Below the pieces are notes generated by a model. The model saw only the letters and a program-made list of their open reading frames with translations. It did not search any database and had not been told where the DNA came from. The position numbers and the translations under genes are program-made. From the NCBI GenBank assembly GCA_027310625.1, contig DAIDAM010000014.1, positions 1 to 58,920 on the forward strand: a stretch of DNA of 58,920 bases, in the 5' to 3' direction. The stretch comes from a bacterium. Lineage in GTDB: Bacteria > Patescibacteriota > Minisyncoccia > UBA6257 > 2-01-FULL-56-20. Numbering within the stretch: the first letter of the stretch is position 1; the number at the start of each line of letters is the position of its first letter. This document shows, piece after piece, positions 452 through 34,576 of the stretch.

Positions 452-2350
452 ATGTGCGGCATCGTCGGTTACATAGGAAAGGAGGAAGCGCTTCCGGTTC
501 TCCTCGAGGGCATAAAAAATCTCGAGTACCGAGGATATGATTCCGCCGGTTTTGCAATTCTCGGTGAAGATGAAAAAGTCAGCGGCGAAAAAGCAGTGGG
601 GAAGATTTCCGCTCTTGCGGAAAAAGTCGGCGGCAGAAAATTCGGCGGGAAAACCGGAATAATCCACTCGCGCTGGGCAACGCACGGCGGCGTGACGGAA
701 GCAAACGCCCATCCGCACTCCGACTGCAAGGGCGTCATCTGGCTCGCGCACAACGGCATCGTCGAGAACTACAAAGAATTGAAAGACGAACTTAATAAAA
801 AAGGACATTCCTTCAAATCCGAAACGGACACGGAAGTAATCGCGCATCTTATAGAAGAGGAATTGAATCCCGTTAGAAGTCGCGCTCCCGCACAAGGCGG
901 GAGTCCTGAGGGGACCGCTGGCGCGGCTACTTCTAACGGGACGTTTTCTAACGCCGTGCGCAATGCGCTCAAAAAAATCAGGGGAACGTACGGCTTGGTT
1001 ATTTTGAAATCGGACGAACCGGACACTTTGGTTGCCGCGCGGAATTTCAGCCCGCTTCTCGTCGGTCTCGGCGAGGGCGAATACATCGTCGCTTCCGACG
1101 CCGCGGCGGTTTTGAAGCATGCGAAAAACGTTCTTTATCTGGACGACGGCGAGATGGCGGTTCTGACAAGAGACGGGCACAGAGTTTTTGATTTGGAAAT
1201 GAGAGAACGCGATAAGGAATCACAAGTCATTGACTGGTCGCCGGAGCGCGCGCAAAAGAATTGCTATCCGCATTTCATGCTCAAGGAAATTTTTGAAGGG
1301 CCGGAAGCGGTGGAGAATTCTGTCAGGGGACGGCTTGTTTTGGAAGAAGGGAATGCTAAGCTCGGGGGACTTGAAAAAGTTATGCCCGCTCTGAGAAACG
1401 CAAAAAGAATTTTGATTTCGGCGTGCGGCACTGCTTATCATGCCGGGCGCGTCGGCGAATATATGCTCGAAGAATACGGCGGGATTCCGGTTGAAACCGA
1501 CATCGCTTCCGAATTCCGCTACAGAAAACCGGTTTTCCGCGAGGGCGACGTGTTTCTGGCGATTTCGCAATCGGGAGAAACGGCGGACACGCTGGCGGCT
1601 TTGCGAGAAGCGAAAGAAAAAGGTGTGCCGGCGCTTGCGGTTGTCAACGTTGTCGGTTCCACAATCGCGCGCTATGCCGACGCCGGCGTTTATCAGCACA
1701 TCGGTCCTGAAATCGGGGTCGCTTCCACAAAAGCGTTCGTCTCACAAGTTTCCATTCTTGCTCTGCTTACATTGCTCATCGGCCGCCAGCGCGAGATGTC
1801 CGTTGTGATGGGCAGGCGCATCGCGAACGAGCTCACGAAAATTCCTGAATTGATGAGAAAAATTTTGAAACAAAGCGATAACGTAGCAACGCTTGCGCGC
1901 AAATACGGCAAATACGGCAACTTTTTGTATCTCGGGAGAAAATACAATCTGCCGGTGGCTTACGAAGGAGCGCTGAAGCTGAAAGAAATTTCCTATGTTC
2001 ATGCCGAAGGGTGCGGGGCGGGGGAGATGAAGCACGGCTCAATAGCGATGATAGACGAAAATTTCCCCTCCGTCTTCATCGCGCCGCAGGATTCGGTTTA
2101 TGAAAAAATGATTTCCAACATTGAGGAAATAAAAGCGCGGCGCGGTCTCGTAATTGCCGTCGCCACCGAGGGCGACAAAAAAATCGCCGACATCGCCGAT
2201 GATGTGATTTATATTCCGAAAACGCTTGAAATGCTCACGCCGCTTCTGTCCGTCGTGCCGCTGCAATTATTCGCGTATCACTTCGGCGTGCTTAGAGGAT
2301 TGGATGTTGACAAACCAAGAAATTTAGCCAAAAGCGTCACGGTAGAGTAA
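452..2350 (+). CDS. glmS: glutamine--fructose-6-phosphate aminotransferase
   Basis: ATG at 452 gives MCGIVGYIG (catalytic Cys2 of class II amidotransferases). Has SIS-domain motifs and the C-terminal KPRNLAKSVTVE. The ORF-track start at 329 overlaps the previous gene and is not the real start. Confidence 0.95.
   Translation: MCGIVGYIGKEEALPVLLEGIKNLEYRGYDSAGFAILGEDEKVSGEKAVGKISALAEKVGGRKFGGKTGIIHSRWATHGGVTEANAHPHSDCKGVIWLAHNGIVENYKELKDELNKKGHSFKSETDTEVIAHLIEEELNPVRSRAPAQGGSPEGTAGAATSNGTFSNAVRNALKKIRGTYGLVILKSDEPDTLVAARNFSPLLVGLGEGEYIVASDAAAVLKHAKNVLYLDDGEMAVLTRDGHRVFDLEMRERDKESQVIDWSPERAQKNCYPHFMLKEIFEGPEAVENSVRGRLVLEEGNAKLGGLEKVMPALRNAKRILISACGTAYHAGRVGEYMLEEYGGIPVETDIASEFRYRKPVFREGDVFLAISQSGETADTLAALREAKEKGVPALAVVNVVGSTIARYADAGVYQHIGPEIGVASTKAFVSQVSILALLTLLIGRQREMSVVMGRRIANELTKIPELMRKILKQSDNVATLARKYGKYGNFLYLGRKYNLPVAYEGALKLKEISYVHAEGCGAGEMKHGSIAMIDENFPSVFIAPQDSVYEKMISNIEEIKARRGLVIAVATEGDKKIADIADDVIYIPKTLEMLTPLLSVVPLQLFAYHFGVLRGLDVDKPRNLAKSVTVE
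869..940. repeat. 72-bp inverted-repeat element inserted in frame in glmS
   Basis: Termini are CCCGTTAGAAG (869-879) and CTTCTAACGGG (930-940), with an internal hairpin ctcccgc/gcgggag. It encodes PVRSRAPAQGGSPEGTAGAATSNG within an otherwise conserved GlmS region. Confidence 0.7.
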
Positions 2351-2577
2351 TTTGTGATTGTTCCTCTATGTTAGAATTTTAATAATGGGAAAACTTGTCG
2401 TCGCCAACTGTCCCACAACTCCTCGCGAAGCGAAGCTAAGTGATTGGAGTTGGCGCGATCCCGCGTATCTCCGAATAAAGACATTCAAACATTTCCATCG
2501 CGAGGAGAACGGGATCCACGCCAATCTAACCTCATCGCTACGCTTTTCGGAGATTGGCGGGAGAAGATGAATCCTTC

Positions 2578-3375
2578 ATGTTGAACAAAAAGCTCATAGT
2601 GGCGAATTGGAAGATGAATCCCGAATCCGTGACCGACGCGATTTCGCTCGCGAAGGAGACGGAAAAGGGGATTCCGAAAAGTTTGAAAGCGGAGGTCGTT
2701 ATCGCTCCGCCGTTTCCGTTTTTGGCAGCGGCGAAGAAAGTGATTAAGCGCGCGGAACTCGGGGCGCAGGATGATTTTTGGGAATTCAAAGGAGCGAGAA
2801 CGGGAGAAGTTTCGCCGACGATGCTCAAAAACTCCGGCGTAAAATATGTTATCGTCGGTCACTCGGAACGACGCGCGCTCGGCGAAACCGATGAGATGAT
2901 AAATAAAAAAATCGAAGCGACGCTGAAAGCGGGATTGAAACCGATTCTTTGCGTCGGCGAGCCATCAGAGCGCGGACTAACGCGGACTCTACGCGGATTT
3001 ACGCGGAATTATGAGATGGCGAAAAATTACATACGAAATCAATTGGAAAAGGATTTGAAAAACATTTCGAACCTCAAACGTCGAACCTCGAACATTATTG
3101 TCGCCTATGAGCCGATTTGGGCAATCGGCACCGGAAAGCCCGATAAACCGGAAGATTCGCTGGAAATGATTCGGTTCATTAAAGGGATATTGAGTTCGAA
3201 GTTCGGAGTTCGAAGTTCGATTGTTCTCTACGGCGGGTCTGTTAATTCACAAAACGCGCGGAGTTTTCTACAATACAAAGAGATAGACGGCGCTTTGGTC
3301 GGCGGCGCCAGCTTGAATGCAAAGGAATTCTCTAAAATAGTAGTAATCGTGAACAATGCGAATGCTGTAAAATAA
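2578..3375 (+). CDS. tpiA: triosephosphate isomerase
   Basis: MLNKKLIVANWKMN start, plus the IVGHSERR and YEPIWAIGTG motifs. The track start at 2554 (TTG) is also possible. Confidence 0.9.
   Translation: MLNKKLIVANWKMNPESVTDAISLAKETEKGIPKSLKAEVVIAPPFPFLAAAKKVIKRAELGAQDDFWEFKGARTGEVSPTMLKNSGVKYVIVGHSERRALGETDEMINKKIEATLKAGLKPILCVGEPSERGLTRTLRGFTRNYEMAKNYIRNQLEKDLKNISNLKRRTSNIIVAYEPIWAIGTGKPDKPEDSLEMIRFIKGILSSKFGVRSSIVLYGGSVNSQNARSFLQYKEIDGALVGGASLNAKEFSKIVVIVNNANAVK
2970..3010. repeat. Four tandem degenerate 10-mers (cgcggacNNN) inside tpiA
   Basis: Sequence is gcgcggactaacgcggactctacgcggatttacgcggaatt, translated as ERGLTRTLRGFTRN. Confidence 0.6.
3064..3096. repeat. ttcgaac/tcgaacc word repeat inside tpiA
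   Basis: Sequence is atttcgaacctcaaacgtcgaacctcgaacatt. It belongs to the same word family as 3192-3224, 11941-12000, 25526-25557 and 37699-37726. Confidence 0.55.
3192..3224. repeat. gttcgaa/gttcgga word repeat inside tpiA
   Basis: Sequence is gagttcgaagttcggagttcgaagttcgattg, translated as SSKFGVRSSI. Confidence 0.55.
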
Positions 3376-4214: not shown

Positions 4215-4838
4215 ATGACCAGAAAAGATTTATTTCTCTCGCTTCTTATAGGCGGTTTGGTCGGGCTTTTGTTTCAGCCGATAATTTCCAACTTTTCGGC
4301 TGGCATATCGGTTTTGGCGAATATTCCGCTGATTCAACTCCGCGTTGCGATATTTTTTGTTTTTCTCATCGGCGCTCCGGCCGCCCTTTCCGTTTTTTAT
4401 TTCTTCAGCCGATTTATTCCCGTTCTTTATCAATTCGCGAAATTTGCCTCCGTCGGCGTTCTTAACACCACCATTGACTTGGGCGTTTTCAACCTTGAAA
4501 CGTTTTTGTACAGCGGTTTACCCTCAGGATTTGTATTCGCTTTTTTCAAAGCTGTTTCTTTCGTTGTTTCCACGACAAACAGCTTTATTTGGAACAAGTA
4601 CTGGACGTTTGGGGCAAATGCGGCTCCGCAGGCAGGTGAAGTGCTTAAGTTTTATACCATCGCGATTATCGGCGGATTTTTGAACGTCGGCGTGGCGACA
4701 GCCGTCCGCGGGATGAATTTCGGCTTCGTTTCGGAAAACGTTTTGGTGAATCTTCTCGCGCCGATTGCCGGAATACTCGCGACTTTCCTTTGGAATTTTA
4801 TGGGGTATAAGTATGTGGTGTTCAAAAGATTTGACTAA
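4215..4838 (+). CDS. GtrA-family membrane protein
   Basis: Multi-pass hydrophobic protein with FAKFASVGVLNTTIDLGVFN and WNKYWTF, which are GtrA-like signatures. Confidence 0.7.
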   Translation: MTRKDLFLSLLIGGLVGLLFQPIISNFSAGISVLANIPLIQLRVAIFFVFLIGAPAALSVFYFFSRFIPVLYQFAKFASVGVLNTTIDLGVFNLETFLYSGLPSGFVFAFFKAVSFVVSTTNSFIWNKYWTFGANAAPQAGEVLKFYTIAIIGGFLNVGVATAVRGMNFGFVSENVLVNLLAPIAGILATFLWNFMGYKYVVFKRFD

Positions 4839-4851
4839 TTGGGGCTTCATC

Positions 4852-4860
4852 TGCTATAAT
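4852..4860 (+). promoter_or_regulatory. Extended -10 box TGCTATAAT
   Basis: Exact TGnTATAAT immediately after the gtrA stop and ahead of a highly structured 350-nt non-coding stretch. Confidence 0.35.
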
Positions 4861-4866
4861 GCCCGC

Positions 4867-5217
4867 GAATGAGTGTGAGTCCCGTAAGATGCTTTGCACT
4901 TACGGGATGAGTATGCCTCAACGATGATATCGACTGAGGCATGCCCTTCGGTTATGTTTGGCCTGCCCCGACTTCGGTCGGGGTTTGGTTTTAAAAAGGC
5001 AAATATTTTTCACAACACGCGTCGCTCATCCTGCGACTCGCTCGCTCTAGTCCTCGCCGATTGGTCGCCCAAGGCGACACCGTGCCAATCGGCTGCGGAG
5101 GTTGCTCAAGATATTTGCTTTTTTGAACTTTACGCTTGAGTATCCTATTATAGTTTTGGGCGGCCGAAGCGCACTCATTTAAACAAACATAACATTAAGG
5201 AGGTCACCTCGGCCGCT
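4867..5217 (+). other. Highly structured non-coding region (stacked hairpins); either an unassigned ncRNA or a pile-up of palindromic elements
   Basis: Hairpins: cccgtaag/cttacggg (4880-4906), tgcctca/tgaggca (4914-4941), ccccgac-ttcg-gtcgggg plus a T-run (4964-4992), gcaaatat/atatttgc enclosing gccgattgg...ccaatcggc (4999-5118), and gcggccga/tcggccgc (5159-5217). Confidence 0.4.
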
Positions 5218-5224
5218 CAATGAA

Positions 5225-5295
5225 GGTTACGAATTTACGAATCGTTACAGATATACGAATTCGTACATTCGTAAAAATCTGTAAATTCGTAACCC
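5225..5295. repeat. ttcgta/tacgaa word repeat with inverted ends GGTTACGAA...TTCGTAACC
   Basis: Sequence is ggttacgaatttacgaatcgttacagatatacgaattcgtacattcgtaaaaatctgtaaattcgtaacc, directly upstream of murB. Confidence 0.55.
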
Positions 5296-5301
5296 ACATT
5301 C

Positions 5302-6306
5302 ATGTTCCAAGAAAACGTTCCGCTCGCGGGATTTTCAAGCTACAAAATAGGCGGGCCGGCCCGCTATTTTTTTGAGGCGAAAAATATCGAGGAACTTAAA
5401 CGCGCCGTCGAAAAAGCGGGAAAAGAAAATTTGAAAATTTTCATCCTCGGCGGAGGAACAAACGTTCTCTTCGGCGACGAAGGATTCGACGGCCTGGTTT
5501 TGAGACCGGCCTTCGGTTTTATGAAACGCTCCGACGGCAAGGTGTCCGCCGGCGCGGGAGTTTTGATGTCCGATCTCGTGAACTTTGCGATTGAAAACGA
5601 GCTCGGCGGTCTTGAATGGGCGGGTGGCTTGCCGGGGACGCTCGGCGGCGCGATAAGGGGCAATGCCGGCGCTTTCAAGGGAGAAATAAAAGACGTCATT
5701 GAAAGCGTGAAAAGTTTTGACATTCGAACCCTCAACGAAATTGAAAGAAATTTTCAGGAATGTTGTTTCGGATATCGTTCAAGCGTTTTTAAAAACGATT
5801 CCGGAAAAGAAATAATAGTTTCCGCCGTTCTGAATTTTTCCAAGGGAGACAAAAATGAGATAAAAAAGAGCGTTGAAGAAAAAATTTCTTACAGGAAAGA
5901 GCGGCACCCGATGGAAAGCCCGAATGTGGGAAGCATTTTCAAAAACATTCCCGTTTCGCAGATTGACGCGGACATAGAACAGATTGATGCAGATACTATC
6001 CGCGTAAATCCCCGCCTCCGCCCGGCTTCGGACGGGCAGGCGCGCAGCAGTCCGCGATTATCCGCGTTCACCGCGCCGGTGAAGAGCGACCCCTTTCCCG
6101 TGGTTCCCGCAGCTTTCATAATTTCTGAAGCGGGACTGAAAGGAGTAAGGTCGGGTAACGCGATGGTTTCGCCGAAGCATCCGAACTTCATCGTCAATAC
6201 GCTTGATGCGAAGGCGTCGGACGTGAAAAACCTTATAAATCTTGTGAAAAACGAGGTTAAAAAGAAATTTGGGATAGAACTGGAGGAAGAAATAATTTTT
6301 GCTTAA
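5302..6306 (+). CDS. murB: UDP-N-acetylenolpyruvoylglucosamine reductase
   Basis: FAD-binding N-terminal region (YKIGGPARYFFE, ILGGGTNVLF), then GSIFKN and SPKHPNFIVN. It carries a ~40-aa insert at about 5958-6080. Confidence 0.9.
   Translation: MFQENVPLAGFSSYKIGGPARYFFEAKNIEELKRAVEKAGKENLKIFILGGGTNVLFGDEGFDGLVLRPAFGFMKRSDGKVSAGAGVLMSDLVNFAIENELGGLEWAGGLPGTLGGAIRGNAGAFKGEIKDVIESVKSFDIRTLNEIERNFQECCFGYRSSVFKNDSGKEIIVSAVLNFSKGDKNEIKKSVEEKISYRKERHPMESPNVGSIFKNIPVSQIDADIEQIDADTIRVNPRLRPASDGQARSSPRLSAFTAPVKSDPFPVVPAAFIISEAGLKGVRSGNAMVSPKHPNFIVNTLDAKASDVKNLINLVKNEVKKKFGIELEEEIIFA
5958..6080. repeat. Composite insert in murB (tccgcg-word repeats plus GC hairpin)
   Basis: Contains cagattgacgcggac...cagattgatgcagat, atccgcgtaaatcc, the hairpin cccggcttcggacggg, and gtccgcgattatccgcgttcac. 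It encodes IDADIEQIDADTIRVNPRLRPASDGQARSSPRLSAFTAP. Boundaries are approximate. Confidence 0.55.
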
Positions 6307-6366
6307 AGAATTTTTTTCGGCGGTGAAAGTTATCCACAGCTTCCGTGAAATTTTCAGAAATTGATT

Positions 6367-6375
6367 TGTTATAAT
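6367..6375 (+). promoter_or_regulatory. Extended -10 box TGTTATAAT
   Basis: Exact TGnTATAAT about 105 nt upstream of the mini-ORF at 6480. Confidence 0.35.
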
Positions 6376-6479
6376 TTAAGTGAAATAAATTTTCGGGCAT
6401 CAGCGGTCGGGTGAGCTCGCTTGCAAAAAAATTTAAGCGGGCAAAGGTCGAGAAGCCCCAAAATTTCGCCTTATAACAA

Positions 6480-6533
6480 ATGGCAAAAAGAAGAAAGGCC
6501 AAGAAAGCTAAGAAAGCAAGGAGGAGAAGATAG
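6480..6533 (+). CDS. 17-aa extremely basic peptide (MAKRRKAKKAKKARRRR), hypothetical
   Basis: ATG to TAG, followed 20 nt later by a strong intrinsic terminator. It lies just upstream of hpf. There is no clear Shine-Dalgarno site. Confidence 0.3.
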   Translation: MAKRRKAKKAKKARRRR

Positions 6534-6552
6534 GTTTCTTTTCTTTGAGTCG

Positions 6553-6616
6553 CCCCGCCTAACCCTTTGTATCGGCTGTTGAGTTTCCGGCAGGAAGGTT
6601 AGGCGGGGTTTTTGTT
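6553..6616 (+). terminator. Intrinsic terminator
   Basis: Stem ccccgcctaacc (6553-6564) pairs with ggttaggcgggg (6597-6608) and is followed by tttttgtttg. Confidence 0.6.
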
Positions 6617-6667
6617 TGAAATTATTGCCTTTCGGCTGGCGCGGGGGTAAACTTAAGGCCGATTCAT

Positions 6668-6781
6668 CCCGTTAGAAGCAACTATCATGATTACAAGACA
6701 TATTCCACAATTTGCGCAAATGGTCGTTATGCTTGAAATGGCGTGTGTTACGACCGCCCAAGGCGGCCTGCTTCTAACGGG
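6668..6781. repeat. 114-bp element with the same termini as the glmS insert (CCCGTTAGAAG...CTTCTAACGGG)
   Basis: The terminal 11-mers are identical to those at 869-879 and 930-940. The interior differs and contains ccgcccaaggcgg. The element ends 1 nt before the hpf ATG. Confidence 0.65.
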
Positions 6782-7165
6782 ATGAAAATAACAATAGAAT
6801 CGTCCGGAATCGACTTAACGCCCTCGCTCAAAATTTACATTGAAAACAAGCTCGGGACTCTATCTAAAATAATAGAAAAGTTGGAAGGGGGAAAAAGCGA
6901 AGCGGAAATAGTGGCAGAGGTTTCACGGACTACGAAACATCATCATAAAGGGTTTATTTTCCGCGCGGAAGGAAATTTGAAATTCGGCAAAACCCTTCTT
7001 CGCGCGGAGGCGAACGGGGAAGACGTTCGCGCCGCTGTGGATTTTTTGAAAGACGAGTTGAAAAGAGAGATTGTGAATTTCAAGGAGCGATTTTCCGCGT
7101 TGTCCAGGCGAAAAGAGCGCTCGGCGAAAAAAGACATCCGTCTTTCGAAAGAAGCCCGTTTCTAG
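6782..7165 (+). CDS. hpf: ribosome hibernation promoting factor / RaiA (S30AE family)
   Basis: MKITIESSGIDLTPSLKIYIENKLGTL...AEANGEDVRAAVDFLKDELKREI matches the S30AE pattern. The track start at 6743 lies inside the repeat element. Confidence 0.8.
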   Translation: MKITIESSGIDLTPSLKIYIENKLGTLSKIIEKLEGGKSEAEIVAEVSRTTKHHHKGFIFRAEGNLKFGKTLLRAEANGEDVRAAVDFLKDELKREIVNFKERFSALSRRKERSAKKDIRLSKEARF

Positions 7166-7195: not shown

Positions 7196-9841
7196 ATGTC
7201 CTTTATCGGAAAAATTTTCGGCGATGCGAATGAACGTTATGTGAAGTCGCTTCATCCGGAAATTGAAAAAATAAATGTCGCGGAGAAAAAATTCGCGGCG
7301 CTTTCCAGCGAAGAACTTAAATCGTCAACCGAGGAATTCAGAAGGCGGCTGAGAGAAGGCGAGGTTTTGGACGACGTTTTACCCGACGCTTTTGCCGCGG
7401 TCCGCGAAGCGGCGAGAAGAACTCTCAGTCAACGCCCTTTTGACGTCCAGCTGTTGGGCGGGATTGTTTTGCATCGCGGCGCCGTTGCGGAAATGGCTAC
7501 GGGCGAAGGAAAAACTCTTGCCGCCGTGGCGCCTTCGTATTTGAACGCGCTTTCAGGAAACAGCGTCCATATTGTGACGGTCAACGAATATTTGGCGCGG
7601 CGCGATACCGTCTGGATGGGGCAAATTTATCACGCGCTTGGAATGAAAGTTTCCTGTCTTGTGCCGAATTCCGCCTTTATTTACGACCCCCTTTATACGC
7701 GGATAAACGCGGATTCATCTGCGCAGATCCGCGCGGATGAAAATCTGCGTGAATCCGCGCTGTTGGATCGCGAACGCGATACAACGGGAGGTTTCTTGGT
7801 TCAGCAGGAGTTTTTGAAGCCGATTTCAAGGCGCGAAGCGTACAAAACGGACATTGTTTACGGCACGAATCACGAGTTTGGTTTTGATTATCTCCGCGAC
7901 AACCTTGCTTACAGAATTGAAGATCAGGTTCAGGGAGAGCGCAATTTCGCGATAATAGACGAGGTGGACAGCATTTTGATAGATGAGGCGAGGACGCCGC
8001 TGATAATTTCTGCGCCTGATACGGGGTCAAGCGAGTTCTACAAGGTCTTTGCAAGAATTGCGGAAAAACTTTCCAAGGACGGTGATTATACGGTTGACGA
8101 GAAATTCAGAACGGTGAGCATTACGCAGGACGGGATAGAGAAGGTGGAAAAGTTAATCGGAGTGAAAAATCTTTATGCCCCGGAAAACCTGCGCCTTGTC
8201 CATTTTTTGGAGGAGAGTTTGAAAGCGAAAGCGATTTTCAGGCGCGACAAGGATTACGTCGTCAAAAACGGCGAGGTGATAATCATTGACGAGTTCACCG
8301 GGCGCATGCTTCACGGCCGCCGCTACAGCGGAGGACTGCATCAGGCGATTGAAGCGAAGGAAGGAGCGGATGTCAAAGAAGAGTCGCGCACTTACGCCAA
8401 AATTTCCATTCAGAATTATTTCCGCCTTTACAAAAAAATTTCCGGAATGACGGGAACAGCGCAAACGTCGGCGGAGGAGTTCCACAAAGTTTACAATCTT
8501 GACGTCACAAGCGTTCCGACGAATAAGCCGGTCGTAAGAACCGATATGCCGGATTTGGTTTACAAAAACGAGGAGGCGAAATGGAACGCCGTAGTGGATG
8601 AAATAAAAGAAAAACAGAAGACGGGGCAGCCGGTGTTAATCGGAACGACATCAATACAGAAAAACGAACTTCTTTCCGAAAAACTTTTGAAAGCCGGCGT
8701 GCGCCACGAAGTTTTGAACGCGAAGAACAACGAACGCGAAGGCGCGATAATAGCGCAGGCGGGGAAACCCGGCGCGGTTACGGTTGCTACGAACATGGCC
8801 GGACGCGGAGTGGACATAATCTTGGGGGGTAACCCGCAAGACCCTGAGCAAAGTCGAAGAGTTCGAGAAACAGGCGGCCTTCACGTCGTCGGCACGGAGC
8901 GTCACGAAGCGCGCCGCATAGACAATCAGCTCCGCGGGCGCTCGGGGCGGCAAGGCGACCCCGGCTCGTCGCAGTTTTTCCTTTCGTTGGAAGACGATTT
9001 GCTTCGGGTTTTCGGCGGAGAAAAAATAAAGAACATGATGGAAACACTTAAAGTTCCCGAAGACCAGCCGATTCAAGCGGGATTTTTGACGAAAATCATC
9101 GCACAAGCGCAGGCAAAAGTGGAAGGTTTCAATTTTGATTTGCGAAAACGTCTTTTGGAATATGATGATGTTTTGAACCGCCAGCGAACGAGCATTTATG
9201 GAGAACGCCAGAAGATTCTCGGAAGTTTAAACAAAGAAGACATAGCAAATCTTATTTTCGAAGCCGCGGGGGGTTTTTTGAAGAACAATTTTTTCGGGGA
9301 GGATTTGCCCTTTCCGGAGGCGCGCGAGGGCGATTTGCGGAAAATTCTTATTGATTGCGGCGCTGCAAAAGAAAGCGACCTTCCGGAGCGGTGCGATTTT
9401 GAAAACGTTTCCGAGCTTTTGAAAAAAAGAAGCGCGGATTCCGCCGAGAATCCGTTTTCCAGAAATTATCTTATAAACGTTTTAGATATGTTATGGATGA
9501 ACCATCTTGAGGATTTGGAAGCGCTCGGCGAGTCGGTTGGGCTTCGCGCCTACGGACAAAGAGACCCCGTCGTTGAGTATCGCCACGAAGCCCATCGTCT
9601 TTTCAAAAGTTTCTGGAACAATTTCAACGAGTGGGTGTTTATGAACGTATTCAAGTTAGCGACCAGCGACAAGCGACAAGCGACAAGCGAAACCAATCAG
9701 CAGGCAACGCGCGTTTCTAATGGCTATACTCTAAGTTCTAACGGCCCTAGAGTAAAAATCGGCCGGAACGACCCCTGCCCGTGCGGAGCAAAATACGAGG
9801 ACGGGCGTCCCATTAAATATAAGAAGTGTCATGGGAAATGA
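7196..9841 (+). CDS. secA: preprotein translocase ATPase SecA
   Basis: Motifs MATGEGKTL, DEVDSILIDEARTPLIIS and TNMAGRGVDI, plus the C-terminal zinc motif CPCGAKYEDGRPIKYKKCHG. Confidence 0.97.
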   Translation: MSFIGKIFGDANERYVKSLHPEIEKINVAEKKFAALSSEELKSSTEEFRRRLREGEVLDDVLPDAFAAVREAARRTLSQRPFDVQLLGGIVLHRGAVAEMATGEGKTLAAVAPSYLNALSGNSVHIVTVNEYLARRDTVWMGQIYHALGMKVSCLVPNSAFIYDPLYTRINADSSAQIRADENLRESALLDRERDTTGGFLVQQEFLKPISRREAYKTDIVYGTNHEFGFDYLRDNLAYRIEDQVQGERNFAIIDEVDSILIDEARTPLIISAPDTGSSEFYKVFARIAEKLSKDGDYTVDEKFRTVSITQDGIEKVEKLIGVKNLYAPENLRLVHFLEESLKAKAIFRRDKDYVVKNGEVIIIDEFTGRMLHGRRYSGGLHQAIEAKEGADVKEESRTYAKISIQNYFRLYKKISGMTGTAQTSAEEFHKVYNLDVTSVPTNKPVVRTDMPDLVYKNEEAKWNAVVDEIKEKQKTGQPVLIGTTSIQKNELLSEKLLKAGVRHEVLNAKNNEREGAIIAQAGKPGAVTVATNMAGRGVDIILGGNPQDPEQSRRVRETGGLHVVGTERHEARRIDNQLRGRSGRQGDPGSSQFFLSLEDDLLRVFGGEKIKNMMETLKVPEDQPIQAGFLTKIIAQAQAKVEGFNFDLRKRLLEYDDVLNRQRTSIYGERQKILGSLNKEDIANLIFEAAGGFLKNNFFGEDLPFPEAREGDLRKILIDCGAAKESDLPERCDFENVSELLKKRSADSAENPFSRNYLINVLDMLWMNHLEDLEALGESVGLRAYGQRDPVVEYRHEAHRLFKSFWNNFNEWVFMNVFKLATSDKRQATSETNQQATRVSNGYTLSSNGPRVKIGRNDPCPCGAKYEDGRPIKYKKCHGK
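7697..7790. repeat. tccgcg/ctgcg word-repeat insert in secA
   Basis: Sequence is cgcggataaacgcggattcatctgcgcagatccgcgcggatgaaaatctgcgtgaatccgcgctg, read as RINADSSAQIRADENLRESAL. Boundaries are approximate. Confidence 0.55.
9658..9695. repeat. gcgacaa word repeat inside the secA C-terminal linker
   Basis: Sequence is agcgaccagcgacaagcgacaagcgacaagcgaaacc, read as ATSDKRQATSET. Confidence 0.55.
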
Positions 9842-10153: not shown

Positions 10154-10861
10154 ATGAAGAAAAATCAGTTATCTGACGCCGAAATCAAAAATAGAAAAAC
10201 AAGGGCTGCCGAAATAATAAAGACGCTGAAGCGGCTTTTCCCGAACACAAAAATCGCTCTCCGCTACAAAACGCCGTGGGAGCTTTTCGTCGCCGTTGTT
10301 CTTTCGGCGCAGTGCACCGACAAGAAGGTGAACGAGGTCACGGAAAAACTTTTTTCCGCCAAAGGCGCCGCGCCCGCCGTCGGGCAGGGATCCGCCTCGG
10401 GCGGAAAGAAATATAAAACTGTTGATGATTTTGCCAAAGCCGATTTGAAAGCATTGGAGCAAATAATCCGACCTACCGGCTTTTACCATAATAAAGCTAA
10501 AAATATTATCGCGGCTGCTAAAGTATTAAAAGAAAAGTTCGGCGGGAAATTGCCGAGGACAATGGCGGAAACGCTGACATTGCCGGGTGTCGGAAGAAAA
10601 TCGGCAAATGTGATTCTCGGAAACGCTTACGGCGTCATTGAAGGAATAGCGGTTGATACTCACGTCCGCCGCCTTTCGAAAAAACTCGGACTGACAAATC
10701 ACGACGACCCGGTCAAGATTGAACGGGATTTGATGGAAATTGTTCCGAAGAAAGATTGGTTCAATTTCACTTATCTGATGATTGATTACGGCAGAAAATA
10801 TTGCCCGGCTCGCCCCCACACCAAAGAACGTTGTCCTTTGTACAAATTTGAAAAACATTAA
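10154..10861 (+). CDS. nth: endonuclease III
   Basis: Has FVAVVLSAQCTD, the HhH-GPD motif LPGVGRKSANVIL and VDTHVRR. Cysteines are present in the C-terminal region. Confidence 0.9.
   Translation: MKKNQLSDAEIKNRKTRAAEIIKTLKRLFPNTKIALRYKTPWELFVAVVLSAQCTDKKVNEVTEKLFSAKGAAPAVGQGSASGGKKYKTVDDFAKADLKALEQIIRPTGFYHNKAKNIIAAAKVLKEKFGGKLPRTMAETLTLPGVGRKSANVILGNAYGVIEGIAVDTHVRRLSKKLGLTNHDDPVKIERDLMEIVPKKDWFNFTYLMIDYGRKYCPARPHTKERCPLYKFEKH
10355..10405. repeat. 51-bp TCCGCC...GGCGGA palindromic insert in nth
   Basis: Sequence is tccgccaaaggcgccgcgcccgccgtcgggcagggatccgcctcgggcgga. It spans 17 codons and is read as SAKGAAPAVGQGSASGG. Confidence 0.65.
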
Positions 10862-12416: not shown

Positions 12417-13196
12417 ATGTACCAATTAAACAGCCTAAAAAAGATTCCCAGTTTGGTTCACGGATTTTCCGAGGTGAAGGATGGTAATATGGCTTTTAAG
12501 TGGGGTGATAAAAAATTGGTTTTTGAAAATAGAACGCGATTTCTTTCGGCCCTGGGAATAAAACCGGAACATTGCGTAATTTCCGCCGTCTCACACGGTA
12601 CAAACATCGCAGTCATAAACTCAAAAGACGATGCGGGGATTGAAAATGGTTTTCGCACAGTGAACGCAGACGCGGTTATGACGAACAAGAAAGAAATATT
12701 TCTCGGGATTTTGACCGCGGATTGTCTGCCGGTAATAGCCTACGATAAAACAAGCGGCGCGATCGCCTTGGTTCACTTGAGCAGAATGAACACGCCTAAG
12801 GATTTTATCAGTTTAGTAATTAAAAAAATGAGTTATGAATATAGCACAAGAATTCCTGATTTGATTGTCGGCATTGGTCCCGGAATACGGAAAGAATCCT
12901 ACATATTCACTGACGAAGAACTTAAAATGCGCGTGCCCGACGAAAAAATTTTTAAGGGATTTGTTATTAACTTGCCCGTCGGCCCGCTTCGCCGAAGCGA
13001 AGGCGAGGCGGGCAAAAAAGCGATAGATTTGGTCGGCTACAGCGTAAGCGAATTTGTTTCAGCCGGCGTGTCGGAAAAAAATATAGAAGTGAGCGAGATA
13101 GACACTGCGGCGGACAAAAATTTTTTTTCGCATTACCGCTCGCGCTCAACAGGAGAATTGGAAGGACGGATGCTTACGATTATTGGAATGGTGTAG
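12417..13196 (+). CDS. pgeF: YfiH/PgeF (DUF152, laccase-domain) family protein
   Basis: VHGFSEVKDGNM, LTADCLPV and FFSHYR motifs. It carries a GC-rich hairpin insert at about 12970-13016 (LPVGPLRRSEGEAGKK). Confidence 0.8.
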   Translation: MYQLNSLKKIPSLVHGFSEVKDGNMAFKWGDKKLVFENRTRFLSALGIKPEHCVISAVSHGTNIAVINSKDDAGIENGFRTVNADAVMTNKKEIFLGILTADCLPVIAYDKTSGAIALVHLSRMNTPKDFISLVIKKMSYEYSTRIPDLIVGIGPGIRKESYIFTDEELKMRVPDEKIFKGFVINLPVGPLRRSEGEAGKKAIDLVGYSVSEFVSAGVSEKNIEVSEIDTAADKNFFSHYRSRSTGELEGRMLTIIGMV

Positions 13197-14209: not shown

Positions 14210-14389
14210 ATGGTTATTTCTGTCACCGCCGCATCGGGGAATTTGTACTCTTGTTCGGAGTGCGGGTTTAATTACAGAGACAAAGAAACGGCGGAGAAAT
14301 GCGAGAAGTGGTGCAAAGAACACAAAAGCTGTAACGTGGAAATAATCAAATATGCCGTCAAAGAAAGCGAGCGGGATAAAGAGAGATAA
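14210..14389 (+). CDS. 59-aa Cys-rich (zinc-ribbon-like) protein, hypothetical
   Basis: The ATG lies 2 nt after the thioredoxin stop. The sequence YSCSECGFNYRDKETAEKCEKWCKEHKSC contains CxxC and a further Cys cluster. It is below the ORF-track size cut-off and overlaps the gdh start by 38 nt. Confidence 0.45.
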   Translation: MVISVTAASGNLYSCSECGFNYRDKETAEKCEKWCKEHKSCNVEIIKYAVKESERDKER

Positions 14390-15689
14390 GTTTGGCCCCG
14401 AATATATCGTCGAAGTTTATGACCCGGCACTTGGGATGGAGGGGTTTTTAGTTATTGATAACACCGCGCTCGGCCCGGGCAAGGGCGGGATACGGATGAC
14501 TCCGGATGTGACCGCGGAGGAAATTTTCCGGCTGGCGCGAACGATGACGTGGAAAAACGCTCTTGCGGGAATTCCTTTCGGCGGCGCCAAAGCCGGAATT
14601 GTCTGGCCGCCTCGACGTACTCGAGACAGGAGAGACGGTTCGGATGTCCCTTTTAATTCGGATGGGCGCATTCGCCCGCCCGCCTTGCTTCGCAACGCGA
14701 AGCGGGCAGGCAGCGCGCTTTCGGATGCCCTGAAGAAAAAATTTATCCAAAGTTTCGCGCGGAGAATTTCCGTTTTCACGCCGAGGAAATATATTGCCGG
14801 GCCGGACGTTAATACCGGCGAACGGGAAATGAAATGGTTCGTGGAAGCGACGGGGAACTGGCGGAGCGCCACGGGCAAGCCGGCGAATGTTTGCATAGAA
14901 ACTTTCGGCAGGGGAACCGCCCGCCTTAAAGCGGGCGAGCCTCGCCCCGCCAGCTGGCGGGGCGGGAAATGCGGCATACCGCACGAATTCGGCAGCACCG
15001 GTTTCGGTGTCGTGGAATCAACCGAGGTCGCCGCCGAACTTGCCCTCCCAAGTTTCCGAAGCAGAAATTTGGGAGGGTGGGCCGGGATTCCCCTTGAAAA
15101 CGCGACCGTTGCCATTCACGGCTTCGGTAACGTCGGAACGTTTACCTATGAGTTTTTGAGAGCAAAAGGCGCGAAAGTTGTCGCGCTTGCCGACAAAAGC
15201 GGTGCCGTGTTTTCAAAAAACGGATTCGACAGAAAAACGATTGCGGAAGCGATTGCCCGAAAAAAATCTCTAACCGCCGTTTTTCCGAAGTCCAAAATAA
15301 GCGAGAAAAAATTCTGGGGTTTACCGGTGGACATACTGATTCCCGCTTCCGTTACCGACGTCATCAACGATTCCAACAAAAATTCCATCTGCGCCAAAAT
15401 CATTGTCGAAGCCGGAAATATTCCAATGAGCGAGAAAATCGAAAAAGAACTTTTCCGAAAAGGAATTTTGATCATTCCCGATTTTGTCGCCAACGCCGGC
15501 GGCGTAATTTCGTCCTACGCGGAATACCGAGGATACAATCCCAAAAAGATGTTCGATTTGGTCAGCAGAAAAATCAGGGAAGCGACGCGTCTTGTTTTGG
15601 AGCAAAGCATCAAAGAAAAAAGAAATCCCCGCGACGTCGCGATGGAAATCGCCGGTAAAAAAGTTGAAGAGAGAATGAAAAGAATATAA
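14352..15689 (+). CDS. gdh: Glu/Leu/Phe/Val dehydrogenase family enzyme (probable glutamate dehydrogenase)
   Basis: FLVIDNTALGPGKGGIRM, GGAKAGI, AGPDVNTGE and the Rossmann motif AIHGFGNVG. It is interrupted by three palindromic inserts. Confidence 0.85.
   Translation: MPSKKASGIKRDKFGPEYIVEVYDPALGMEGFLVIDNTALGPGKGGIRMTPDVTAEEIFRLARTMTWKNALAGIPFGGAKAGIVWPPRRTRDRRDGSDVPFNSDGRIRPPALLRNAKRAGSALSDALKKKFIQSFARRISVFTPRKYIAGPDVNTGEREMKWFVEATGNWRSATGKPANVCIETFGRGTARLKAGEPRPASWRGGKCGIPHEFGSTGFGVVESTEVAAELALPSFRSRNLGGWAGIPLENATVAIHGFGNVGTFTYEFLRAKGAKVVALADKSGAVFSKNGFDRKTIAEAIARKKSLTAVFPKSKISEKKFWGLPVDILIPASVTDVINDSNKNSICAKIIVEAGNIPMSEKIEKELFRKGILIIPDFVANAGGVISSYAEYRGYNPKKMFDLVSRKIREATRLVLEQSIKEKRNPRDVAMEIAGKKVEERMKRI
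14608..14725. repeat. Insert 1 in gdh (GC-rich palindromes)
   Basis: Contains ctcgacgtactcgag and cccgccttgcttcgcaacgcgaagcgggcagg, read as RRTRDRRDGSDVPFNSDGRIRPPALLRNAKRAGSALS. Boundaries are approximate. Confidence 0.55.
14910..14995. repeat. Insert 2 in gdh (two GC hairpins)
   Basis: Contains cccgccttaaagcgggc, ccccgccagctggcgggg and tgcggcataccgca, read as GTARLKAGEPRPASWRGGKCGIP. Boundaries are approximate. Confidence 0.55.
15043..15077. repeat. Insert 3 in gdh: CCCTCC..GGAGGG hairpin family
   Basis: Sequence is ccctcccaagtttccgaagcagaaatttgggaggg. It belongs to the same family as 26136-26167 and 57004-57036. Confidence 0.65.
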
Positions 15690-17825: not shown

Positions 17826-18554
17826 TTGCTTAAAAACTATTATGACTTGGTGACCAAACTCTCCCGTTCCAAAATCGATTTGCTCGCCGAATGTCCGCGC
17901 TGTTTCTGGCTGGAAATGAAAAAAGGCGTGAAGCGCCCCCAGCCGTTTCCTTACACCATCAATAACGCCGTTGATTACCTGATGAAGCAGGAGTTTGATA
18001 TTTATCGCGAGAAAGGCGAGCCGCATCCGGTGATGGTTGAAAACGAAATAAACGCCGTTCCTTATCAAAACGAAAAACTGAACGAGTGGCGGCACAATTT
18101 CACGGGCATCAGGCATACGCACGAGCCGAGCGGATTCGAAGTGTTCGGGGCGGTGGACGACATCTGGGTCAATCCCGACGGCGAACTTATTGTCGTCGAT
18201 TACAAAGCGACGGGCGCGAACGAGCACAAAGTTCAAGATTCCTACCGCCGGCAGATGGAAGTTTACCAGTGGCTTTTGCGGAAAAACGGATTCGAAGTTT
18301 CGCCCGTCGGGTATTTCGTTTTTGCGAGAGTTAATAAAGGGAATGGTTTTTCCGCCCAAGGCGGATCCGCCTCTGGCGGAGGCAGGCAAGCCGTTTTACC
18401 CTTCAATTTTTTCATTGAGTCGCACAAAGGCGACGATTCCTGGATCGAAGGGATTTTGTCGAAAGCGCGGGAAGTTTTTGATTCCGACGAAGCTCCGAAT
18501 TCCTCCGCGGCTTGTCAGTACTGCGCCTATCGCGAAGGCGCAAATGGTGTCTAA
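17826..18554 (+). CDS. PD-(D/E)XK nuclease family protein (Cas4/RecB-like fold with Cys cluster)
   Basis: An N-terminal CPRCFW, then GAVDDIW...LIVVDYKATG (the D..DxK core), YRRQMEVYQWLL, and a C-terminal CQYCAYR. Confidence 0.7.
   Translation: MLKNYYDLVTKLSRSKIDLLAECPRCFWLEMKKGVKRPQPFPYTINNAVDYLMKQEFDIYREKGEPHPVMVENEINAVPYQNEKLNEWRHNFTGIRHTHEPSGFEVFGAVDDIWVNPDGELIVVDYKATGANEHKVQDSYRRQMEVYQWLLRKNGFEVSPVGYFVFARVNKGNGFSAQGGSASGGGRQAVLPFNFFIESHKGDDSWIEGILSKAREVFDSDEAPNSSAACQYCAYREGANGV
18351..18383. repeat. 33-bp TCCGCC..GGATCC..GGCGGAGGC insert in the nuclease gene
   Basis: Sequence is tccgcccaaggcggatccgcctctggcggaggc, read as SAQGGSASGGG. Confidence 0.75.
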
Positions 18555-33602: not shown

Positions 33603-33703
33603 GCGAGTTTAGATTAAGAAAATAAAGGGGCGGACTAGCGTTTTCTTTTTTCGTATTTTCCGCTTAACATTGAAGTATTGAATAAAGTGAAATGGTTCAT
33701 TCG

Positions 33704-33729
33704 CTCATTCGCGCGAATGGTGGAATGAG
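33704..33729. repeat. 26-bp hairpin element CTCATTCGCGCGAATGGTGGAATGAG
   Basis: An identical 26-mer occurs at 58343-58368, and a variant at 44020-44041. Confidence 0.75.
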
Positions 33730-34576
33730 AAAAAGCAAACCAAAATACGTAATCGGTATTGATAAGGTGGGTCGTGCCGCCCCAAAAGGGCGGGCCTCTC
33801 GCCTCGCTGGAGCTAAGGCGAAGCGGACGCCCCGTAAATATGTAATTGGTATCGACGAGGTGGGGCGGGGCGCTCTCGCGGGGCCGGTGGTCGTGGCGGC
33901 GGTTTGTTTTCCGACAAAATTGAGAGTGCGGAACGCGGAACTCGGCGCGTTGAAGGATTCCAAAAAGCTTTCGCCGAAGGCGCGCGAACGCTGGCTCGAA
34001 CATTTTAAAACTGTTCCCGAAATATTATCGCGAACAGCCAGAGTTTATCCGCGAAAAATAGAAAAAATAAACATCTCGCAGGCGGCAAACCGCGCCGCAA
34101 CTTCGGCGCTGGAACGCGTCATCGAATCCGTTTTCGCCAGTAGGACAAAAAAACATTCTAACATTCTGCAGAATGTTAGAATGTTCAAATCTATGCCGGG
34201 AACAAACTATTCTAATATTCTTAAGAATATTAGAATAGATATTTTTCTTGATGGGGGATTGTATTTAACGAATAAAATTAATCCTTCGATAAACTTCCTT
34301 CGACACGGCTCAAGACAAGCAGGGCGAATGATTGTCAAAACAATCATTCGGGGCGACGAGAAAATCGCCGCCATCAAAATCGCTTCCATCATCGCCAAAG
34401 TGCAGAGGGACAAGTATATGAAAAAACTTTCCCGAAAATATCCGCGCTATGACTTTGAGATGCACAAGGGATACGGGACAAAAATGCACCGCAGGGCCAT
34501 CAGAAAACACGGGCCTAGCGAAGTTCATAGATTGACGTTCTTGAAGAAATCCCATAGAATTGCTAATAGCAAATAG
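33725..34576 (+). CDS. rnhB: ribonuclease HII
   Basis: IGIDEVGRGALAGPVV (the catalytic DE motif) and a C-terminal HKGYGTKMHRRAI. The start is uncertain (33692 or 33725). The N-terminal KYVIGID(K/E)VGR is duplicated and the gene contains two P32-type inserts. Confidence 0.85.
   Translation: MRKSKPKYVIGIDKVGRAAPKGRASRLAGAKAKRTPRKYVIGIDEVGRGALAGPVVVAAVCFPTKLRVRNAELGALKDSKKLSPKARERWLEHFKTVPEILSRTARVYPRKIEKINISQAANRAATSALERVIESVFASRTKKHSNILQNVRMFKSMPGTNYSNILKNIRIDIFLDGGLYLTNKINPSINFLRHGSRQAGRMIVKTIIRGDEKIAAIKIASIIAKVQRDKYMKKLSRKYPRYDFEMHKGYGTKMHRRAIRKHGPSEVHRLTFLKKSHRIANSK
34154..34183. repeat. P32 variant (CTGCAG centre) in frame in rnhB
   Basis: Sequence is cattctaacattctgcagaatgttagaatg, read as HSNILQNVRM. 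Confidence 0.75.
34207..34238. repeat. P32 perfect copy in frame in rnhB
   Basis: Sequence is ctattctaatattcttaagaatattagaatag, read as YSNILKNIRID. Confidence 0.85.

Follow-up and report, generated by a model that had tools for sequence, protein, structure and literature searches.

INTRODUCTION

The Rickettsia palindromic elements (RPEs) are short, selfish palindromes that are often found in frame within the housekeeping genes of a reduced genome and are translated there as extra surface segments (PMC10969869). A second group of small repeats, represented by Correia/NEMIS in Neisseria and by ERIC, RUP and BOX, combines small size, terminal repeats, target duplication and many copies with the lack of a transposase gene; the hairpin transcripts of such MITEs (miniature inverted-repeat transposable elements) and their effects on the expression of neighbouring genes are also on record (see also PMC10969869). 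Here we describe a family of small inverted-repeat elements represented in a 58,920-nt stretch of DNA (contig DAIDAM010000014.1 of assembly GCA_027310625.1, positions 1 to 58,920; the window, below) from a member of the Patescibacteriota (GTDB lineage 2-01-FULL-56-20) that is nearest to Candidatus Liptonbacteria. One block lies in frame within glmS and another adjoins the start codon of hpf, and both are very probably copies of a non-autonomous, MITE-like transposon family whose insertion rebuilds gene starts and −35 boxes.

The glmS copy behaves much as an RPE does, although the likeness is functional only. The present family has an unrelated sequence, other hosts, 12-bp terminal repeats and a 4-bp target duplication, and copies within open reading frames (ORFs) are a minority (14/130), most being located at start codons or promoters, which is not reported for RPEs in PMC10969869. 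Families of the Correia/NEMIS type are limited to a genus or family, whereas this one spans many phylum-level lineages of Patescibacteria with identical tips. It also differs from them in regenerating the start codon or −35 box, in its fixed orientation and in a subfamily with a small ORF that ends at the terminal repeat. A full-text literature search returned nothing on MITEs in the candidate phyla radiation (CPR) or on a link between MITEs and leaderless genes, and no relevant result for start-codon inverted repeats in Saccharibacteria; a 2024 review of prokaryotic MITEs mentions neither CPR MITEs, nor leaderless-gene MITEs, nor start-codon repeats (PMC10969869). In-frame palindromic elements were already known from Rickettsia (PMC10969869). 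As far as we have checked, the new features are a superphylum-wide MITE, the rebuilding of start codons and −35 boxes, the fixed orientation and the subfamily small ORF.

RESULTS

Constant ends, variable interiors and breadth of the family

The terminal 11-mer CCCGTTAGAAG is found at exactly four sites in the window, 869–879(+), 930–940(−), 6668–6678(+) and 6771–6781(−), which form two inward-facing pairs (869–879/930–940 and 6668–6678/6771–6781); 0.81 matches are expected in the window when one mismatch is allowed. As a paired pattern, CCCGTTAGAAG…CTTCTAACGGG matches 869–940 (72 bp) and 6668–6781 (114 bp), compared with an expectation of 0.00 (100 shuffles), and both blocks fold much more strongly than shuffled sequences (z = −4.3 and −3.8). 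The first-pass annotation of this DNA, made from the sequence alone, had described a 72-bp block bounded by these ends and in frame within glmS, together with a sister copy adjoining the hpf ATG; both descriptions hold, with the hpf ATG at 6782–6784. A mini copy (4881–4906) brings the number of family members within the 59-kb window to three. This mini copy, the extra terminal base pair, the 4-bp duplication, the preference for start codons and −35 boxes, the fixed orientation, the small ORF of the hpf copy and the superphylum-wide breadth of the family all go beyond that annotation.

A scan of one genome per species for the two 11-mers at a spacing of 41–101 nt identified at least 119 genome stretches with exact ends, mostly from Patescibacteria (CPR). 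The 130 copies extracted from them are the working set for the genome counts given below. Host lineages include Nomura-, Kaiser-, Yanofsky-, Falkow-, Jorgensen-, Moran-, Doudna-, Komeili-, Buchanan- and Levybacteria, many Saccharibacteria and Paceibacterota. Labels outside this group (Planctomycetota, Elusimicrobiota, Ratteibacteria, Clostridia or Syntrophobacter) attach to a few carrier metagenome-assembled genomes (MAGs) and may be genuine or reflect binning errors. As a replicate, metagenome contigs were scanned for a single end, the left one of a long subfamily (CCCGTTAGAAGCCGCGATCGC), whatever its context, giving at least 120 contigs that carry this end. The search for further copies that the first-pass annotation had proposed thus yields hundreds, with up to three in a single 8-kb locus of the genome set. 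A phage-borne element was considered and rejected, as only a single contig of the viral collection carries a copy.

Copy lengths are bimodal and range from 48 to 129 bp (n = 130), with mini forms of 26 bp. Short copies (63–80 bp) are mostly GC-rich and contain two internal hairpins of unrelated sequence; long copies (88–129 bp) have an A/T-rich centre, and 35 of 48 have an interior rich in A on the gene strand. The ends, Y-CCCGTTAGA…TCTAACGGG-R, are constant and form the base of a long hairpin around an interior that is free to vary and shares no sequence between copies. With the Y…R tips included, the terminal inverted repeat is perfect over 12 bp. Of the 130 copies, 72 have T…A and 50 have C…G as their terminal bases, and the tips are complementary in 122. 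Arm positions 10–12 vary with compensation (…AGAAA/TTTCT…, …AGAGA/TCTCT…, …AGAGG/CCTCT…), leaving YCCCGTTAGA (CCCGTTAGA) as an invariant core, so that the contrast between conserved ends and different interiors, first noticed in the two window copies, extends to the family. Consensus folding of ten short copies recovered only the outer stem because the alignment was not structure-consistent, and folds of individual copies were used instead.

Target duplication and empty sites

An identical 4-mer is located just outside the tips (offset 1) on both sides of 78 of the 130 copies, most commonly TGAA (23), TTTA (12), TTGA (11), TGGA (9) or TGAG (7). Flanking repeats of at least 4 bp are present for 72% of copies, compared with ∼10% when left and right flanks are paired at random.

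Empty sites come from syntenic relatives, which we designate by the locus labels L122, L124 and L126. Four sites are polymorphic among these relatives and the window, and all fall in one 10-kb syntenic region: (i) in the glmS loop, L126 is filled (A TGAA C-CCCCACACCTCTGGAGGTGTGGGG-G TGAA A) and L124 is empty (GAG ATG AAA ACA), the two GlmS proteins being 95% identical; (ii) in a small transcript between gtrA and murB, the window is filled at 4876–4911 (G TGAG T-CCCGTAAGATGCTTTGCACTTACGGG-A TGAG T) and both L124 and L122 are empty (ATGAGTGTGAGTATACC); (iii) in the −35 box of the small-transcript promoter, L122 is filled (T TTGA T-79-bp member-A TTGA CT), L124 is empty (GTTGACT) and the window is empty too and (iv) at the hpf start, the window is filled and L124 and L122 are empty. 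Three filled/empty comparisons confirm that the duplication is 4 bp long and that the Y…R bases are part of the element rather than of the target. Constant ends, unrelated interiors, target duplications and filled/empty sites together support the MITE-like interpretation put forward in the first-pass annotation. The in silico empty alleles of the window are …AAGGCCGA-TGAA-AATAAC… for hpf, …GTGAGTG-TGAG-TATGCC… for the copy at 4876 and …GAATTGAAAAC… for glmS. No empty hpf allele was present among the metagenome contigs scanned, and two other public contigs with this hpf are both filled; read sets SRR5161795 and SRR5161788 also contain the hpf locus.

The same sites bear on two other ways in which such palindromes could move. 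attC sites are imperfect palindromes of 57–141 bp in which structure and short ends matter and asymmetric bulges give polarity. The elements described here are likewise imperfect palindromes (48–129 bp) with conserved ends, a variable centre and an asymmetric bulge, GTTAGAA/TTCTAAC resembles the GTTRRRY/RYYYAAC core sites, and 22 copies have 6-bp flanking repeats, as might be expected if they were sites for a tyrosine recombinase, either attC-like and folded from a single strand or dif/lox-like with 11-bp arms around a 6-bp core. We consider this very unlikely. The order of the motifs is inverted, with GTT… at the 5′ end and …AAC at the 3′ end on both strands; the empty sites place the exchange points 4 bp apart and assign the outer bases to the element and the targets have no common arm sequences. 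No cassette arrays and no intI were seen, the copies being dispersed at the starts of unrelated genes, and the one tyrosine recombinase noted in the window looks, from its translation, like an ordinary XerC/D-type enzyme. An integron attC site was accordingly rejected as a candidate on the order GTTAGAA…TTCTAAC, the dispersal of the copies and their 4-bp duplications.

The second possibility is that the palindromes are REP/BIME-like or derived from IS200/IS605 and are moved in single-stranded form by an HUH (Y1) transposase. Strong hairpins and flanks such as TTGAT, TTTAC and TTGAC, which resemble the target tetra- and pentanucleotides of IS200/IS605, would agree with such an origin. The REP/BIME and IS200/IS605 families, which have a conserved 5′ tetranucleotide, however make no target duplication and have subterminal hairpins, whereas here the terminal repeats reach the tips and the 4-bp duplications are confirmed by empty sites. 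Membership in either family was rejected for these two reasons, and an HUH-based origin appears highly improbable.

Insertion at start codons, in −35 boxes and within genes

The MITE-like elements are concentrated at gene starts. Sixty-eight of the 130 copies adjoin the ATG or GTG of an ORF of at least 60 aa, compared with 2% at random positions. The flanks at these starts are typically ATGNNY on the left and RTGNN on the right: the native start codon is kept on the left, and the terminal purine together with the duplicated TGNN creates a new ATG or GTG on the right. The 68 downstream proteins form 64 unrelated clusters and mark independent insertions; they include ATP synthase alpha, TyrRS, RuvC, IF-3, trigger factor, TopA, MreB, SSB, ribosomal proteins L4, L18 and L29 and, twice, HPF. 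RTG is found directly outside an end in 82 copies, 68 of which are at true gene starts; at most 13.5% would be expected there had insertion into RTG been random and been tolerated solely at gene starts and in DNA outside ORFs. In the metagenome replicate, a start codon follows 95 of 99 copies (including the extra-A variants described below).

Promoters are a second preferred location. At least eight non-start copies are located in −35 boxes (TTGAC or TTTAC, followed after a spacer of mostly 17 nt, and once 19 nt, by TANNNT), which amounts to 8 of 24 non-start copies, compared with 8.5% for the same motif elsewhere in the loci. One of these insertions is backed by an empty site (L122 versus L124).

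Fourteen copies lie inside long ORFs, and all of them are a multiple of three in length, stop-free and read in the host frame CCC GTT AGA AG.; the other two frames encounter TAG or TAA within the termini. Four of the 14 (L064, L078, L084 and L113) are also counted among the 68 start-adjoining copies, because an in-frame ATG or GTG follows the element. The L084 copy is clearly within an aminoacyl-tRNA synthetase gene, and true start insertions number ∼64. These in-ORF copies also address the idea that the glmS block is removed before or during translation, by intron-like excision or by ribosomal bypass. Flanking direct repeats and a stable hairpin do bring to mind the take-off and landing sites in gene 60 of phage T4. 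A length of 3n and an open host frame would nevertheless be needless if the block were removed, the termini hold stops in the other two frames, no real gene interrupted by a stop-containing copy was found and the glmS copy itself has no flanking repeat. When the element and one repeat were deleted in silico, the candidates for a restored frame (L018, L052, L079 and others) had junk upstream frames and were discarded. Removal of the block is scarcely credible.

Leaderless context, orientation and a small ORF

A −10-like box (TANNNT) ends 4–10 nt before the left repeat in 33 of the 68 start copies; the same box is found at 10% of random positions and at 26% of other long-ORF starts of the same loci. 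Shine–Dalgarno (SD)-like motifs accompany 4 of the 68 start copies and 6% of the other starts. The metagenome replicate gives similar values, with a −10-like hexamer upstream of 48 of 99 copies and an SD-like motif in 8 of 99. Many of the start copies in the genome set show a textbook leaderless arrangement (TATAAT, 6–7 nt, ATG). The scarcity of SD motifs and the frequency of closely placed −10 boxes suggest that the host genomes make little use of SD sequences and have many leaderless genes. Judged from these motifs, the elements would be located at the very 5′ end of leaderless transcripts.

The elements are also oriented. Read along the gene, 16 copies have a second helix that joins the 5′ arm flush and carries its bulge on the 3′ side, with one copy in the opposite configuration; a perfect hairpin lies next to the 3′ arm in 12 copies and never next to the 5′ arm. 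Among 82 distinct complete copies of the metagenome set, the gene start follows the right end in 71 and the left end in one.

In the long subfamily defined by CCGCGATCGC (n = 99), the frame that ends at the TAA of the right repeat is open for at least 18 codons in 73 of 99 copies; the other two frames of the same copies are open to this extent in only 12 and 16. The right end of this putative small ORF reads …TGC TTC TAA (A)CGGG ATG, and 66 copies have an ATG-initiated ORF of 15–29 codons (mode 23) whose stop is 4–5 nt before the host ATG. Many CCGCGATCGC copies in metagenome loci L128–L247 (e.g. L136, L164 and L202) have an extra A in the right arm (CTTCTAAACGGG), which places a bulge in the outer stem and gives 5 instead of 4 nt between the small-ORF stop and the host ATG. 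The predicted peptides, of the general form MKxNxxKINN…IAICF, vary (for example, MKINIRKINNLTCQTRELIAICF, MYNRCRKITLETALIAICF and MKIKKTIKERRHKQIAICF) while the frame is kept, and column entropy increases from codon position 1 to position 3. The AUG of the small ORF is located in a weakly structured, A/U-rich apical region of a ∼20-bp stem. This arrangement fits a stop–restart coupling of the small ORF to the host gene, which would account for the orientation bias. Small ORFs that act by termination–reinitiation (AUGA-type) offer a parallel both to the stop 4–5 nt before the ATG in the CCGCGATCGC subfamily and to the TGA overlap in the hpf copy; in contrast to known upstream small ORFs, however, the predicted small ORF would here be mobile and delivered to many unrelated genes.

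These features raise the question of whether the family is better viewed as a functional RNA module, that is, a portable 5′ leader (hairpin and small ORF) for leaderless genes in which function keeps the ends conserved and mobility is simply the means of spread. The strict orientation relative to the gene, the location at the very 5′ end of transcripts, the small-ORF frame kept despite sequence turnover, the A-rich gene-strand interiors and the pairing of the hpf start codon within an 18-bp stem would all be expected of such a module. Against it, copies are also located in −35 boxes, where they are not transcribed from that promoter, in-ORF copies are found in either orientation relative to the host gene, presence varies between close relatives at housekeeping genes and the small ORF is missing from about one-third of its own subfamily and is weakly enriched overall. 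The hairpin family also matches no Rfam covariance model: a gathering-score scan of the whole window returned two tRNAs only, and scans of regions 700–1100 and 4800–6900 at E up to 10 and up to 1 gave nothing relevant to either copy. We regard an RNA module as possible, if rather doubtful.

Copies of the family in the window

Under the MITE-like interpretation, the individual copies in the window (Table 1) can be read as insertions followed by local change.

Table 1. Family members in the window and the features associated with them
Feature	Position	Strand	Remarks
glmS (glutamine--fructose-6-phosphate transaminase)	452..2350	+	Host gene of in-frame copy
Left target duplication TGAA (glmS)	864..867	+	L124 empty site GAG ATG AAA ACA GGG ACT TTT; target A/TGAA/A
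Short GC-rich member	868..941	+	74 bp with T…A tips; core of 72 bp at 869-940, in the glmS frame
Mini member T-CCCGTAAGATGCTTTGCACTTACGGG-A	4880..4907	+	26-bp core 4881-4906; TGAG at 4876-4879 and 4908-4911
Putative −10 box TAAACT	6648..6653	+	8 nt upstream of former +1/ATG position 6662
Left duplication position (hpf)	6663..6666	+	Now TTCA, reverse complement of TGAA
Long member	6667..6782	+	Core 6668-6781; 116 bp when the terminal T and A are counted; this A is also the first base of the hpf ATG
Putative 32-codon small ORF (MITRHIPQFAQMVVMLEMACVTTAQGGLLLTG, then stop)	6687..6785	+	In hpf copy; TGA overlaps hpf ATG (ATGA)
hpf / raiA (ribosome hibernation factor, Ribosomal_S30AE)	6782..7165	+	
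Right target duplication TGAA (hpf)	6783..6786	+	With the element's A gives ATGAA; empty sites …aaaggcaATGAAAATAACC (L124), …caagcaATGAAAATAACA (L122)

The empty hpf sites read TAAGAT-aaaggca-ATG in L124 and TAAAAT-caagca-ATG in L122, with no room for a leader, and the window reads TAAACT-taaggccg-ATTCAT-element-ATGAAAATA. Assignment of the −10 box rests on its alignment with TAAGAT and TAAAAT, which are 7 and 6 nt before the ATG; a consensus promoter scanner made no call at hpf. The inverted repeat of this copy extends to 18 bp (6663–6680/6769–6786) and takes in the ATGAA of the start codon, as the ATGAAT expected on the left appears as ATTCAT, its reverse complement. A putative change of TGAA into TTCA abolishes the upstream ATG and yields an 18-bp stem that pairs with the real start codon; it may have arisen by two substitutions or by templated correction of the palindrome. 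The putative small ORF of the hpf copy has no equivalent when the element is flipped, and by likeness to the CCGCGATCGC-subfamily ORF it is possibly a coupling ORF. Another lineage, represented by L093, has a family member at its hpf start too.

Two further observations concern the hpf region. A mechanical ORF call extends hpf to a GTG inside the element (6743–7165, 140 aa instead of 127 aa), a false extension that arises because the 114-bp copy is a multiple of three in length and open in the hpf frame near its end. In L122, the sequence upstream of the hpf promoter contains a different palindrome (GTCATTGCGAGCGA…TCGCAATGAC, ∼12700–12790), in place of which the CCCGTTAGAAG element is found in the window.

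The glmS copy is composed of a 12-bp outer stem, a 5-bp second stem and two internal hairpins, with a 3-nt bulge on the 3′ side. Its 24 residues (PVRSRAPAQGGSPEGTAGAATSNG) are inserted between …IAHLIEEELN and TFSNAVRNALKKIRGTYG, a point that corresponds in Escherichia coli GlmS to the junction of …NWELK and QGGTLREAV. The first-pass annotation had suggested a comparison with orthologues: among the best 120, an insert of this kind (NPVR…, ending in SNG) is present only in the window GlmS and its nearest relative (P0002, 81% identity, from L122), and 118 of 120 lack it. In an AlphaFold model, insert residues 143–162 have pLDDT <50 and lie between helices 127–138 and 165–175, so the insert is probably a disordered surface loop, modelled at low confidence, between two helices.

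The window glmS copy shows 89% identity, along its entire length, with a copy located in another gene of Parcubacteria GWA2_47_26 (L068), and 86% identity with one from a Saccharibacteria MAG (L028). The glmS copy of L122 falls in another short subfamily and is similar to the second copy of its own genome. The glmS site may thus have been hit independently in two lineages, or copies may have been homogenised within a genome. The empty glmS site contains the favoured target ATGAAA, and two other orthologues (P0003 and P0026) have other short inserts at the same point that also begin with NP, that of P0026 being 13 residues long. A 26-bp CCCCCACACC…GGTGTGGGGG palindrome with a TGAA duplication occupies the glmS loop of L126 (3327–3356). 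From these sequences, the glmS loop appears to be an insertion hot spot, and other hairpin families appear to share the insertion geometry.

The mini member is located ∼10 nt (+9) into the small conserved transcript and is absent from L124 and L122. The surrounding segment between gtrA and murB (∼4833–5220) is a conserved non-coding unit with a TTGACT-17-TATAAT promoter, a 5′ ATGAGTGTGAGT… sequence, a terminator near 4967–4990 and a conserved downstream block (…GCACTCATTTAAACAAACATAACATTAAGGAGGTCACCTCGGCCGCTCA) complementary to the 5′ end. L122 and L124 both have this conserved unit, which no Rfam family matches.

Other palindromic elements in the window

Several further palindromes and insertions are present in the window. 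An 82-bp near-perfect palindrome (5219–5300), with TACGAAT-type repeats and 41-nt arms that are 78% complementary, comes to an end immediately ahead of the murB ATG (5302) and is unrelated to the CCCGTTAGAAG family. MurB has 27 extra residues (…IDADTIRVNPRLRPASDGQARSSPRLSAF…, ∼5960–6070) and SecA 13 (…RINADSSAQIRADENLRESA…, ∼7700–7765), both encoded by in-frame CGCGGAT/ATCCGCG-type palindromes and both absent from the L122 and L124 orthologues, which suggests that this genome has additional families of palindromic elements in its coding regions. Short GC-rich patches encoding Gly, Ala, Pro and Arg are found in tpi (2554–3375), nth (∼10365–10410), gdh (14352–15689), 17826–18554 and dnaK (47065–48993). 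Examples are RGLTRTLRGFT in TPI, GAAPAVGQGSASGG in Nth and another in DnaK; these patches look like translated palindromic insertions. In rnhB (33692–34576), the motif KYVIGID(K/E)VGR is present on both sides of a ∼20-residue Ala/Lys/Arg-rich patch at the N-terminus, suggesting a duplication-flanked insertion at the start of RNase HII.

DISCUSSION

The CCCGTTAGAAG family has the features by which MITEs are recognised: small size without a transposase gene, terminal inverted repeats, a duplication of fixed length and dispersed, polymorphic copies. In the mechanism that we propose, an enzyme acting in trans would insert the element by a 4-bp staggered cut at T-N-N-R targets. Where the target is the A/TGNN of a start codon, the right-end purine and the duplicated T… would remake an ATG or GTG directly after the element; where it is the TTGA of a −35 box, TTGAC would be remade. 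With the start codon or −35 box rebuilt, the gene or promoter is left intact and the insertion can persist. The host gene would then be translated from an AUG at the 3′ foot of the hairpin, which could still work because the host genomes are SD-poor and rich in leaderless genes. For one major long subfamily, and perhaps also for the hpf copy, the small ORF would be read through the 3′ arm to a stop 4–5 nt before, or overlapping, the host AUG and would aid translation of the host gene. Within genes, survival would be limited to copies that are short, free of stops and 3n in length in the frame CCC GTT AGA AG., and these would simply be translated.

Several observations weigh against this interpretation. 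Across the ∼1.66 Mb of flanking sequence sampled, neither a transposase nor a full-length element bearing these ends was detected. The one longer relative found is a 508-bp element in L219 (3349–3856), inserted at the GTG start of a gene for a short-chain dehydrogenase. It shares the tips of the family (C-CCCGTTAGATATT…AATATCTAACGGG-G), is flanked by a CTCA duplication and contains a co-oriented ORF for a 118-aa membrane protein without a Pfam family, and not a transposase; from its ends, it would be a cargo-bearing relative of the MITEs. About 40% of copies have no clean 4-bp repeat, and a few are shifted in register. The right-hand duplication is absent at the glmS copy itself, where the net gain of 66 nt (74 + 4 − 12) would be explained by a later 12-nt deletion between AACGGG of the element and the native AACAGGG. 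The small ORF is only weakly enriched in the mixed genome set (31/68, compared with 19/68 when the copies are flipped in place). Finally, the copies were picked by exact ends and from MAGs, a biased sampling, and their counts are not genome-wide. In addition, sequence preference and survival together fall short of the excess at gene starts, which indicates that targeting or positive selection is needed as well. Gene starts could be found by sequence preference plus selection or by real promoter targeting.

The search for an autonomous partner, which found none, covered solo ends, long-range pairs of ends and proteins shared between loci at ≥70% identity. The metagenome scan with the left end returned only MITE-sized copies and the extra-A right-arm variants, and no transposase-like ORF was recognised by eye among window ORFs of at least 170 aa, for which no domain search was run. 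The geometry of the elements provides a clue to the enzyme. The ends of piggyBac read TTAA/CCCTAGAAAG…, and IS1380 ends begin with CC and have 4–5 bp repeats in ISfinder. The present family resembles both in its 4-bp T..A-type duplication and CCC…GGG tips, and differs in the additional Y before CCC and in a T-N-N-R rather than TTAA target. IS1380 transposases are prokaryotic relatives of piggyBac (PMC10813416). No IS1380-like transposase, or any other, was found with these ends in the flanks, and membership in this group is a lead rather than a result.

A more far-reaching proposal would see in the family a useful addition rather than tolerated junk: a mobile expression module, suited to bacteria without SD-guided initiation, that is directed to leaderless +1 positions or start codons and to −35 boxes, remakes the signal there and adds a 5′ hairpin and a small ORF whose termination would pass the ribosome on to the host start codon. 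Promoter-bound RNA polymerase or melted promoter DNA might perhaps be what is recognised. We consider this version unlikely, though not to be neglected; if true, it would give the first known case of a transposon that targets start codons and brings with it a portable device for translational coupling.

As copies of a MITE-like family, the glmS and hpf blocks show the compact genomes of Patescibacteria to be reshaped by active, very small mobile DNA. Insertion would be made harmless by a novel route, in which a terminal base and the duplicated target remake a start codon or −35 box. For annotation, the consequences are false N-terminal extensions, such as the 140-aa GTG-initiated hpf ORF, and missed leaderless starts, and apparent 'insertions' in conserved enzymes can be transposon-encoded loops. 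The copies can also serve as presence/absence markers for strain-level population genetics of uncultivated lineages. Lastly, the strict orientation and the small ORF make this family a natural experiment on how start codons are found in bacteria that are poor in SD sequences and rich in leaderless genes.

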